Shown one piece after another: positions 60,083 to 61,864 of a stretch of 64,000 nt of DNA. The translations under genes were made by a program, and so were the position numbers. The stretch is from a virus, in the IMG/VR virus record IMGVR_UViG_3300045988_112927, positions 56,519-120,518 of that record. One strand, written 5' to 3'. The notes beneath the pieces are model-generated. The model was not told the DNA's origin. It made no database searches and saw only the letters and a program-made list of their open reading frames with translations. Numbering within the stretch: position 1 is the stretch's first letter; every line of letters begins with the position of its first letter.

Positions 60083-61003
60083 ATGATACATTATTATTGT
60101 CCAGGATTTGTAGAAAGTCAAAAAGCATATAAAATTTTATTTTGGTTAAGGGATAACGCTTCTCAATGTTTTTATGAAAATGTCCAAATTTCAAAAATAT
60201 ATGGATGTTTTCCTAATATGATTTGGAATGGTGGAAGTTATTGGTTCGGACCTTGTTTATCAAGAAATCAAATAATTGATTATTTTGAATGGTATTCACA
60301 TCAAAATGTTCAATTACAATTAACTTTTACAAATCCAATATTAGAAGAAACAGATTTGTATGACAGATATTGTAATGCAATATTAGAAATAGCAAGTAAT
60401 TATGATTTTGTTGAAGTGCTTGTATCATCTGATATATTAGAAAAATATATAAGAAGCAAATACCCTAATATAAAAATTGATAAAAGTATTATAGCAACAA
60501 CAAGAGATAGAGAGAGTGTAAATGATTCTTTGAAAGGATATTTACAAAATCTTGAGACATATAATATGTGCGTTTTACCTCGAAAACATGGAAAAAATTT
60601 TGATTTCTTAAATCAAATTCCAGAAGATAAAAGAAATAGATTTGAAATTTTAGCAACAGACCCATGTCCGATTAATTGTCCAAGATTATATACTCATTAT
60701 GAAGATATGGCTAAAGCTCAATTGTGGATTCCAGGAGGAGTAGAACATAGTCATTGTACAACTATTCATCCTGACAATCCATTTAAGCAATGGCAATATA
60801 GAAATCAAAGAATATCTTATGAAGAATTGCATAAGTATGAAGAATTAGGTTTTACTGAAATTAAATTAAGTGGTCGTACAGATATGATTCAAATGATTAT
60901 TACTGTAGTTCCTTATTTAATAAAACCTGAATACCAACAAGATGTATATGCAGCTTTATTAAATGATTTCAAAGACTATTTAATTCAGCCAGATTTTTCA
61001 TAA
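60083..61003 (+). CDS. peptidase-U32-family-like protein (UbiU/UbiV/RlhA/TrhP-type fold), paralog 1
   Basis: YYCPGF / MIWNGG / LQLTFTN / VLVSSDILEKYIRSKYPNIKI / EILATDPCPINCPR align by eye with U32 N-terminal motif order (ELLxPAG, GADAVYxGG, VxLNT, ADALIVxD..L...YP, ExFxxGxxCxxxxGxC). Confidence 0.4.
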   Translation: MIHYYCPGFVESQKAYKILFWLRDNASQCFYENVQISKIYGCFPNMIWNGGSYWFGPCLSRNQIIDYFEWYSHQNVQLQLTFTNPILEETDLYDRYCNAILEIASNYDFVEVLVSSDILEKYIRSKYPNIKIDKSIIATTRDRESVNDSLKGYLQNLETYNMCVLPRKHGKNFDFLNQIPEDKRNRFEILATDPCPINCPRLYTHYEDMAKAQLWIPGGVEHSHCTTIHPDNPFKQWQYRNQRISYEELHKYEELGFTEIKLSGRTDMIQMIITVVPYLIKPEYQQDVYAALLNDFKDYLIQPDFS

Positions 61004-61015
61004 AGGAGTGTAATT

Positions 61016-61864
61016 ATGGTATACTACTATTTACCAGGATTGTTTGAGTTTTTCGATTTATATGTAGTATATATGGATATATTCAAACATGAAAAATATA
61101 AATTTAGAAACTGTGAAATAGGTGCAATATATGGGGCACCACACGGAGCAATTTGGAACGGAGGACGTGCGCGAGGAGCTTCATATCCAGACATTGATAA
61201 TGTAAAAGATTGGTCTGTCGGAGAAAATGTTAATTGTGCTTTAACATTTACTAATTGTTTATTAACAGAAGAACATTTAGATAATTTATTTTGTAATGAA
61301 ATAACAAGACGTTTTGAAAGAGAAGAAAATGCTATTATAGTAGAGTCTCCTCTTTTAGAAGAATACATTAGAAAAAATTATCCAAAATATAAAATAGTAT
61401 CTTCAACTACTAAATGCATAAGGTCTATTGATTTATTAAAAGAAGAGTTGGAAAAACCATATGAAAGAGTAGTTTTAGATTATAATTTTAATAAAAATTT
61501 TGATGTATTAAAGTCTTTAGAACATAAAGAAAAATGTGAATTACTTGTTAATGCAGTTTGTTACCCAGATTGTCCAAGAAGAAGAGAGCATTATGAGTAT
61601 ATATCAGCAGATGTTTTGCGGCTTGCGCAACCAGGACCGTTTATTTGCGATGCAATGACAAAGCCGTTATATCAAGCATTAGAAAATACTAACACTATAA
61701 CAGTAGATGCTATTTTTAATGTTTATAATCCTCTTGGTTATCAGCATTTTAAGATTGAAGGAAGAACTGCTAATATAGAAGATTTAATTGAGATTCTTGT
61801 ATATTATACTGTAAAACCTGAATATCAATTAGAGATACGACAAAGACTTAATTTGATTTTATAA
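61016..61864 (+). CDS. peptidase-U32-family-like protein, paralog 2
   Basis: YYYLPGLFE / AIWNGGR / CALTFTN / IIVESPLLEEYIRKNYPKYKI / ELLVNAVCYPDCPRR; paralogous to 60083..61003. Confidence 0.4.
   Translation: MVYYYLPGLFEFFDLYVVYMDIFKHEKYKFRNCEIGAIYGAPHGAIWNGGRARGASYPDIDNVKDWSVGENVNCALTFTNCLLTEEHLDNLFCNEITRRFEREENAIIVESPLLEEYIRKNYPKYKIVSSTTKCIRSIDLLKEELEKPYERVVLDYNFNKNFDVLKSLEHKEKCELLVNAVCYPDCPRRREHYEYISADVLRLAQPGPFICDAMTKPLYQALENTNTITVDAIFNVYNPLGYQHFKIEGRTANIEDLIEILVYYTVKPEYQLEIRQRLNLIL

Follow-up and report, generated by a model that had tools for sequence, protein, structure and literature searches.

The functions assigned so far to proteins of the large U32 family are the anaerobic hydroxylation of ubiquinone and the formation of 5-hydroxyuridine (ho5U) in tRNA and of 5-hydroxycytidine (ho5C) in rRNA, and reconstitution in vitro is still outstanding (PMC10990095, PMC11574389). 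UbiU and UbiV act as a heterodimer with one 4Fe–4S cluster in each subunit, the UbiV ligands being a distant upstream Cys and a C-x12-C-x3-C group (PMC6747719), and the canonical Cys motif of U32 proteins reads CX6CX15CX3/4C (PMC6747719, PMC11574389). Prephenate is the oxygen donor in UbiU/UbiV hydroxylation and has been proposed as the donor for U32 proteins generally (PMC10990095). Here we analyse two adjacent genes, encoding the U32-like proteins A and B, at positions 60083–61864 (+ strand) of a 64,000-nucleotide (nt) stretch of virus DNA (IMG/VR record IMGVR_UViG_3300045988_112927, positions 56,519–120,518 of that record; hereafter the window).

The pair closes a block of seven same-strand genes, the cassette, which also encodes a protein built largely of short repeats and two radical S-adenosylmethionine (rSAM) enzymes with SPASM-type features, and which is found again in numerous large phages of the gut or rumen. 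We propose, with a probability of roughly 40%, that A and B constitute a UbiU/UbiV-like Fe–S enzyme for the O2-independent oxidation of the repeat protein, likely by prephenate-dependent hydroxylation of aromatic residues. The evidence that bears on this proposal comes from the relationship of A and B to U32 proteins, from a strictly conserved Cys/His set, from the company that the genes keep across phages and from the occasional presence of a phage gene whose product opens the route to prephenate.

Two paralogous U32-like barrels

Gene A (60083–61003, + strand) encodes 306 amino acids (aa) and gene B (61016–61864, + strand) 282 aa. They are separated by 12 nt, and strong Shine–Dalgarno sequences (AAGGAG and AAAGGAG) end 7 nt before each ATG. 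A more upstream start of gene A, at a TTG at 60062, was disfavoured, as the alignment consensus of the A family opens with MINxxCP at the ATG at 60083. The two proteins are 31% identical across 298 alignment columns (BLASTP, E = 5e-31), well above chance level, and their paralogy is real. They have in common a series of motifs in a fixed order, namely HYYCPGF in A and YYYLPGL in B, MIWNGG and AIWNGG, LTFTN, VLVSSDILEKYIRSKYPNIKI and IIVESPLLEEYIRKNYPKYKI, and EILATDPCPINCPR and ELLVNAVCYPDCPR. An earlier description made from the letters alone (the sequence-only reading) had reported two adjacent paralogous open reading frames (ORFs) here, on phage DNA, and had named such motifs. Both ORFs are confirmed on the + strand, every one of the motifs is found in both proteins in identical order, and the phage assignment agrees with matches to PHROG families at 9.9–17.7 kb of the window for a portal (11603–13219), a large terminase (13603–15342) and a sigma factor (16615–17667), all on the minus strand.

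The relationship to U32 proteins is remote. Against Peptidase_U32 (PF01136; gathering threshold 22.4 bits), B scored 19.5 bits (E = 6.4e-4) over residues 105–154 only, and A gave no match in the Pfam scan, so the gathering score is reached by neither. The signal is broader in the B family, for which a protein search returned 1,895 clusters at E ≤ 1e-3: 24 of 37 diverse B homologues matched PF01136 at E ≤ 0.01, the best at E = 5.8e-7. By these profile scores the B family is a remote U32 relative rather than a clean member of PF01136. The fold is clearer. An AlphaFold2 (AF2) model of B built from the family alignment (pLDDT 94.2) shows the alternating strand/helix pattern of a TIM barrel, and a Foldseek search of the PDB with this model returned a single match at or below 1e-3, the U32 peptidase Mk0906 (5D88; E = 1.6e-6).

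Profile alignment placed the proteins alongside the characterized enzymes. With hhalign and a four-sequence E. coli profile (UbiU, UbiV, RlhA and TrhP) as reference, the alignments were collinear along the whole barrel, with E = 1.7e-5 for B and 2.2e-4 for A (probabilities of 56% and 21%), and paired YYxPG with ELLxPAG, IIVESPLLEEYIRKNYPKYKI..SST with ALIxxDxG...YP..xxHxSxQ, and FKIEGR with KIEGR. Alignment of the B profile with UbiU or UbiV singly was too weak outside the KIEGR stretch, and searches of PDB sequences with B alone, the B-family profile, a profile of the glycosyltransferase family 2 (GT2)-like protein of the cassette and both rSAM enzymes gave none or chance matches. A has a weak 'peptidase' match in PHROG (E = 2.4e-3). 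No PHROG, NCBIfam or PADLOC family was found for A, B, the repeat protein or the 118-aa and GT2-like proteins encoded between them, and with Pfam counted as well no curated family takes in any of these proteins.

Judged from the model and the profiles, A and B are remote, divergent TIM barrels of the U32 superfamily whose nearest structural neighbour is a U32 protein. The sequence-only reading had called the pair U32-like and had asked for a U32 profile search and a fold prediction; the weak PF01136 signal, the TIM barrel and the U32 best neighbour bear out the kinship as a remote one, and Pfam membership proper falls away for both proteins. A and B thus belong to the superfamily yet fail the formal tests of the family, because both stay below the Pfam threshold and depart from CX6CX15CX3/4C.

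A conserved set of Cys and His residues

Residue conservation was scored over 117 B-type sequences that the protein search had returned, 87 bacterial B-type genes and 116 A-type sequences. C182, C186 and C211 of B are invariant in all 204 B-type sequences, and their counterparts in A (C195, C199 and C225) are invariant in the 116 A-type sequences; the first two Cys of each set form the elements C182-x3-C186-PR and C195-x3-C199-PR. A further Cys far upstream, C93 in B and C97 in A, is conserved at 78–93%. The set is completed by a His (H192 in B, H205 in A); at position 192 of B, His is invariant in the phage-type set and Cys takes its place in 34 of the 87 bacterial sequences, a swap that suggests the typical behaviour of a ligand position. 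From this pattern of conservation, the Cys/His set of A and B is predicted to hold an Fe–S cluster.

The arrangement is not the canonical one. In the hhalign comparison, the C-x3-C-P-R of A and B pairs with the third and fourth Cys of the canonical motif (CxxxCR), and both proteins have a deletion where the CX6C element would come after the 'GALC' strand, leaving only the CX3C(P)R half. The 'shortened Cys-containing segment' noted from the letters alone was therefore an accurate description; for the four conserved Cys ligands that were to be sought, the candidates are three invariant Cys and a fourth conserved at 78–93%, and the canonical motif as such is absent. The two paralogues also differ near the end of the barrel. 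B keeps FKIEGR, with K246, G249 and R250 invariant; E248 is found in 115 of the 117 sequences of one B-type set and in 86 of the 87 of the other. KLSGR replaces it in A, with Ser in 101 of 116 A-type sequences, and the KIEGR feature is thus confined to B.

An operon with a repeat protein and two rSAM enzymes

The seven genes of the cassette (55121–61864) are joined by overlaps or by gaps of 4 to 14 nt, with A and B last. A promoter-like site (TTGACT-17-TATACT with a TG; 55039–55067, + strand), which is a consensus match only, lies about 50 nt before the first gene, and is itself preceded by a terminator-like hairpin (54851–54881) that follows a tRNA-Met gene. An Rfam scan of 54700–62400 found tRNAs only and no riboswitch or other element.

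The first gene (55121–55981, + strand) encodes the candidate substrate, a protein of 286 aa with a conserved N-terminal domain (N-domain) of about 110 aa, about 170 aa of repeats and, at the C-terminus, a conserved DIY..R. The repeats are nine-residue units of the form NG(W/C)SQGAxx, encoded in 27-bp tandem repeats at 55480–55587 and 55745–55929. W and C alternate at one position of the unit, which suggests that this residue is the likely cross-link partner. By analogy with other repeat precursors, the protein is a likely substrate of the rSAM enzymes encoded immediately downstream. The first of these, rSAM1 (55996–57390, + strand; 464 aa), carries CNLKCHYC and shows weak similarity to twitch/SPASM-type peptide maturases (phrog_1802, 1e-12; N_Twi_rSAM, 2e-10; weak matches to HxsB, CcpM and GggB). 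The second, rSAM2 (57362–58879, + strand; 505 aa), carries CNQNCEYC and ends in a Cys-rich SPASM region; it matches PapB (4.7e-11), a nif11-type maturase (1.7e-10) and the SPASM domain, and has invariant Cys residues. For both enzymes, similarity to known maturase families (PapB, nif11-type, HxsB and GrrM/OscB) is weak and far below the cut-offs, and the family scans otherwise gave generic viperin-like similarity.

Between rSAM2 and gene A lie two further genes. The first encodes a small conserved protein (58818–59174, + strand; 118 aa) that always follows rSAM2 and aligns with a 102-aa protein of a related locus, L028 (hhalign, 90.7%). The second encodes the GT2-like (GT-A) protein (59143–60078, + strand; 311 aa), which is without the usual acidic DD/DxD, having IIASGS and KCGD where IIDDAS and DCGD are expected, and which may be catalytically altered or inactive. 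It has no direct Pfam or PDB match; its positional counterpart in L028 is a genuine GT2 (PF00535, E = 3e-18), to which it aligns (hhalign, 88.7%; E = 2.5e-6). The G+C content of the cassette is 27–29%, whereas most of the window is at about 35% and the tRNA arrays are at 40–42%; the low value is consistent with horizontal acquisition into a tRNA region.

The cassette recurs across phages with variable, putative tailoring genes

All seven genes occur in identical order in the related phage contigs L001, L005/L006 and L013, with protein identities of 34–82%. No match was obtained when the cassette was compared by megablast with 50,697 phage records, and an exact-sequence look-up of the window's own protein cluster returned no contig. 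Other versions, those of L127 and L128 among them, are rearranged. In L028 a pair of U32-like genes comes first and is followed by the repeat protein, rSAM1, rSAM2 and the small protein, with a true GT2 and then a YcaO protein at the end; in L029–31 the cassette follows a tail-fibre-like gene and encodes a 474-aa repeat protein rich in Cys, Phe and Tyr; and the SPbeta-like prophage L010/L027, from a Clostridiales Family XIII bacterium, has three U32-like genes, an rSAM–GT2 fusion and a 3-deoxy-D-arabino-heptulosonate 7-phosphate (DAHP) synthase. The U32-like genes form pairs or triplets in L001, L005, L013, L010, L028, L030 and L128 (three in the last), and a single one is present in L127.

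As the first cassette loci had been found via the U32-like gene, a reciprocal test was anchored on the rSAM2 alignment, with 55 viral loci. In 53 of them rSAM1 was present, in 40 the N-domain of the repeat protein was detectable, and in 33 a U32-like gene lay within 10 kb; where the full 10-kb flanks were available, the U32-like gene was found at 26 of 37 loci. YcaO was present in 12 of the 55 loci, the rSAM–GT2 fusion in 11, GT2 in 7 and DAHP synthase in 2. The core of the system is the repeat protein with rSAM1 and rSAM2, and U32-like, GT2 and YcaO proteins are frequent optional tailoring parts. Variable add-ons of this kind are the usual pattern of tailoring enzymes in peptide-maturation gene clusters. 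Linkage between U32-like and rSAM genes survives changes of gene order among cassettes whose proteins are 23–45% identical.

DAHP synthase opens the shikimate pathway, which leads to prephenate. In L027 its gene (11499–12317, corresponding to 20092–20888 of L010) lies two genes past the last U32-like gene and scores 390.7 bits against NF006421 (cut-off 335). A second gene of this type is found in L158 (14512–15282), 1 kb downstream of a U32-like gene; its product shares 48% identity with the L027 enzyme, and the DAHP synthase model gives it 294 bits where the KDO8P synthase model gives 98. L158 is a divergent cassette, with a U32-like protein about 29% identical to that of L010. The location of a DAHP synthase gene beside a U32-like gene in two divergent cassettes supports hydroxylase chemistry, indirectly but independently of the other evidence, and by analogy with UbiU/UbiV a possible role of the phage enzyme is to act as a supply line for prephenate.

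The repeat protein belongs to a wider family, which was found by an exhaustive HMMER search with the N-domain; a word-indexed search gave one fragment. The family counts 110 representatives at 50% clustering, in which the domain is always N-terminal, and ranges from fragments up to 380 aa, most members having 160–380 aa. The tails are composed of Asn (16%), Ser (13%), Thr (13%), Gly (12%) and Cys (7.5%), along with Tyr, His and Trp, and contain lineage-specific repeats such as CCNTNSTNGN, HGTCSHGTCS, NGDSNARNSYG and ATFFNGVNYTYFATHCSNYC; most members end in a conserved C-terminus, GTTIDI(T/L)(C/N)..TK(S/T)N. Wherever the order could be read, the repeat gene lies directly 5′ of rSAM1 and rSAM2, and it is missing from the 80 bacterial loci described below. 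The N-domain is predicted to form a three-helix bundle (pLDDT 75). The model has no significant structural neighbour in the PDB and would suit a leader-type precursor as well as a virion protein.

Bacterial relatives and origin of the pair

B-type genes are present in at least 535 species genomes of Clostridia. Neighbourhoods were compared for the best 80 loci (37–44% identity), which come mostly from Oscillospiraceae, Ruminococcus, Lachnospiraceae, Butyrivibrio and Huintestinicola of the gut or rumen. The bacterial gene is mostly solitary and sometimes lies in tandem arrays of two to four B-type copies; such groups, mostly tandem, occur in L055 (5877–9902), L048, L052, L054, L109 and L113, from Ruminococcus, Oscillospiraceae and other gut Clostridia. 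The multiple copies suggest diversification of the substrate. The A-type family is small (132 clusters), and every inspected context was a phage or prophage cassette. On this distribution the simplest history would be that phages took up a Clostridial B-type gene and then duplicated it.

tRNA arrays and other features of the window

The cassette lies between two tRNA arrays. ARAGORN found 17 tRNA genes in the window, 10 upstream (50618–54810) and 7 downstream (62254–63698), so that the sequence-only reading was right about tRNAs beside the pair and one short in its count of about 16. Among them, tRNA-Ala(UGC) and tRNA-Leu(UAG) have U at position 34 (U34) and belong to four-codon boxes, which makes 2 of the 17 plausible carriers of 5-oxyuridine-type (xo5U) modification. 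Arrays adjoin the cassette in ten other loci as well (L001, L005, L013, L024, L027, L028, L033, L038, L127 and L128), and the order Asn-Leu-Asp-Ala-Leu-Glu-Glu-Met is common to the window, L001, L038, L127 and L128. Because the arrays share this gene order, their closeness to the cassette is largely inherited synteny within one broad phage lineage with contigs of up to about 200 kb. A cassette with two U32-like genes in L030 has no tRNA gene within 10 kb.

Other features of the arrays and of the window were also recorded. The window arrays include tandem tRNA-Glu(CTC) ×2 and tRNA-Asn(GTT) ×2, and the unusual A34 anticodons Gly-ACC and Arg-ACG. Several of the contigs L127, L128, L024, L026, L032–L035 and L038 have in-frame stops or fragmented ORFs under the standard code, and suppressor-type tRNAs are encoded in L028 (CUA, 4731–4801), L033 (CUA, 17701–17775) and L001 (UCA, 2272–2354); none was found in the window. 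These sequence features point to stop-codon recoding in relatives of the window phage. A YunG-like phage protein (62899–63177, + strand; PF24591, E = 7e-10) is encoded between tRNA genes, and an M28/M20-type metallopeptidase-like protein (47606–48655, + strand; PF04389, E = 1e-5) upstream of the first array. The GC skew changes sign at about 18 kb, being negative over 1–18000 and positive over 18000–34000. The flip coincides with the place where structural and packaging genes on the minus strand give way to genes on the plus strand, and either divergent transcription or a replication origin could be located there.

Proposed function and alternatives

The order of events that we favour can be outlined as follows. 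One promoter would drive the operon, and the conserved N-terminal domain of the 286-aa repeat protein would serve recognition. The two rSAM/SPASM enzymes would cross-link W/C positions in the nine-residue repeats. Before or after this step, the A/B pair would catalyse an O2-independent oxidation, most likely the hydroxylation of aromatic side chains, with prephenate as the oxygen source, as for UbiU/UbiV; glycosylation of the product by the GT2-like protein may follow. By analogy with UbiU/UbiV we infer Fe–S binding and an A/B heterodimer, and on the same footing hydroxylase chemistry, prephenate as the donor and the repeat protein as the substrate. The sequence-only reading had offered two targets for the pair, the wobble position of tRNA and the neighbouring rSAM-modified peptide, and the second of these fits the context best, given a conserved operon with the repeat protein and two rSAM/SPASM enzymes. 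The complete scheme, in which no U32 enzyme before A and B would have been shown to have a protein as its substrate, and in which they would carry out a prephenate-dependent, O2-independent aromatic oxidation of a SPASM-cross-linked repeat protein ahead of its glycosylation, is doubtful as a whole.

Several observations weigh against oxidation of the repeat protein by a UbiU/UbiV-like enzyme. Kinship with U32 enzymes is loosened by the missing Pfam match of A, by the scores of both proteins below the gathering threshold of PF01136 and by the deletion of the CX6C element. No shikimate, chorismate-mutase or DAHP synthase gene was found in the window itself. About 40% of the cassettes have no detectable U32-like gene, and the single gene in L127 implies that a heterodimer is not obligatory. 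At the 80 bacterial loci there is no conserved partner, rSAM or repeat-protein gene nearby, and the solitary state of these homologues indicates that the ancestral substrate was something else. The repeat protein could, moreover, have some role other than that of a substrate, for instance in the virion.

Proteolysis in the PrtC or 'collagenase' sense, by which A and B would take off the N-terminal domain or release single units from the modified repeats, is in our view unlikely. It would agree with the JGI name of the protein ('collagenase-like PrtC family protease'), with scans of the cassette against Pfam, PHROG and NCBIfam in which no other protease was encountered, and with a Gly/Asn-rich repeat protein as the candidate substrate, and there is a precedent in WprB/WprP for a dedicated protease that cuts rSAM-cross-linked repeat precursors uniformly (PMC11851443, PMC12957482). 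U32 peptidases are, however, without defined catalytic residues, and the characterized members are Fe–S-dependent hydroxylation factors (PMC6747719, PMC11574389). In A and B the strictly invariant residues make up a Cys/His set of the kind that is typical for metal clusters, and the DAHP synthase beside a U32-like gene in two cassettes would have no obvious meaning for proteolysis.

Two roles outside the cassette are each less likely again. In one, A and B would modify C5 of the wobble U in phage or host tRNA, or an rRNA cytidine, like TrhP and RlhA, and would merely be neighbours of the rSAM genes. The characterized U32 enzymes that do not act on quinones work on RNA (PMC6599085), but A and B stop after the barrel, with no further Pfam domain and without the C-terminal domains of TrhP and RlhA. 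The tRNA arrays beside the cassette in the window and at the ten other loci, with two U34 tRNAs in the window, would supply substrates; yet this closeness is largely synteny, L030 does without it, just 2 of the 17 window tRNAs are plausible carriers of xo5U, and the U32-like genes keep the company of rSAM genes despite rearrangement. The wide and solitary occurrence of the bacterial homologues looks like that of a housekeeping gene, although tandem arrays of two to four copies are unusual for an RNA-modification enzyme. The same solitary homologues, which occur in at least 535 species of Clostridia, have varying surroundings and are now and then amplified in tandem, would suit the other possibility, that of an auxiliary enzyme whose substrate is a small aromatic compound, for example a quinone precursor or another host metabolite, taken from Clostridial hosts and functionally unrelated to the peptide cassette. 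Such an origin would accord with the low G+C content, which is as expected for acquired DNA, and the substrate of UbiU/UbiV is itself a small aromatic lipid (PMC6747719). It is made improbable by the linkage to rSAM and repeat-protein genes, which holds across reordered cassettes at 23–45% identity, by A-type proteins seen only in phage or prophage cassettes, and by searches of the cassette proteins and 42 other window ORFs in which no SCP2/UbiT-like or quinone-biosynthesis family was found. Two further roles were considered and rejected: hypermodification of DNA bases, as the cassette shows no linkage to genes of nucleotide metabolism or DNA modification, and anti-phage defence, as there was no PADLOC match.

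The cassette appears to be an undescribed and widespread phage system of post-translational modification. A and B represent a compact, barrel-only U32 subfamily with a rearranged cluster motif that is abundant in gut and rumen Clostridia and in large phages. The phage cassette pairs such an enzyme with a genetically encoded candidate substrate, and prephenate-dependent hydroxylation could thereby become testable. Were the proposed oxidation of the repeat protein correct, that protein would be a new kind of U32 substrate and its product would open a new class of extensively modified phage proteins or peptides in the anoxic gut, for which some phages would supply the donor via DAHP synthase; the product could be a virion component, a toxin or an effector.

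Comparison with known systems

Our literature searches returned no link of U32 proteins to phages, to rSAM cassettes or to gene cassettes for peptides that are made by the ribosome and modified after translation (RiPPs), and no RiPP system with a U32 tailoring enzyme. The nearest parallel for the pair is UbiU–UbiV (YhbU/YhbV of E. coli). Both systems consist of adjacent paralogues of about 300 aa that comprise the TIM-barrel core alone; KIEGR is kept in UbiU and in B and is degenerate in UbiV (RLSPQG) and in A (KLSGR); and in A and B, as in UbiV, a group of Cys residues with CX3C is found towards the C-terminus, with a further candidate ligand in a Cys far upstream of it. The DAHP synthase of two cassette variants fits prephenate-dependent chemistry of the UbiU–UbiV kind. 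Unlike UbiU–UbiV, however, A and B have lost CX6C, their similarity to the E. coli proteins is at the detection limit, and their genes share a phage cassette with those for rSAM/SPASM enzymes and for a repeat protein, in which no UbiT/SCP2 or quinone genes were found. The likeness, seen at the level of sequence, is suggestive.

The sequence-only reading had presented U32 members in general as paired hydroxylases. This is true of the UbiU–UbiV heterodimer (PMC6747719); E. coli has RlhA and TrhP as single genes. TrhP (YegQ; tRNA ho5U34) and RlhA (YdcP; 23S rRNA ho5C2501) resemble A and B in superfamily, in the alignment of CX3C-R and KIEGR and, for the genes described here, in the theme of tRNA neighbours, but at 453 and 653 aa they are longer, with C-terminal extensions and the full CX6CX15CX3C. 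Mk0906 of Methanopyrus kandleri (PDB 5D88), the nearest structure, shows a sequence identity of only 11–13% and was missed by the profile search of PDB sequences.

For the cassette as a whole, the closest relatives in organization are the repeat-precursor rSAM/SPASM RiPP systems (GrrA/GrrM, OscA/OscB, HxsA–D and WprA/WprB/WprP), in which, as here, a repeat precursor is encoded directly 5′ of its maturases. A small accessory protein, and GT2 and YcaO-type genes that vary between cassettes, are further points of likeness to RiPP systems, among them mycofactocin with its GT2 protein MftF. The cassette differs from them in that its 'precursor' is 150–470 aa long, begins with a folded N-domain of about 110 aa, ends in a conserved C-terminal motif and is carried by phages.

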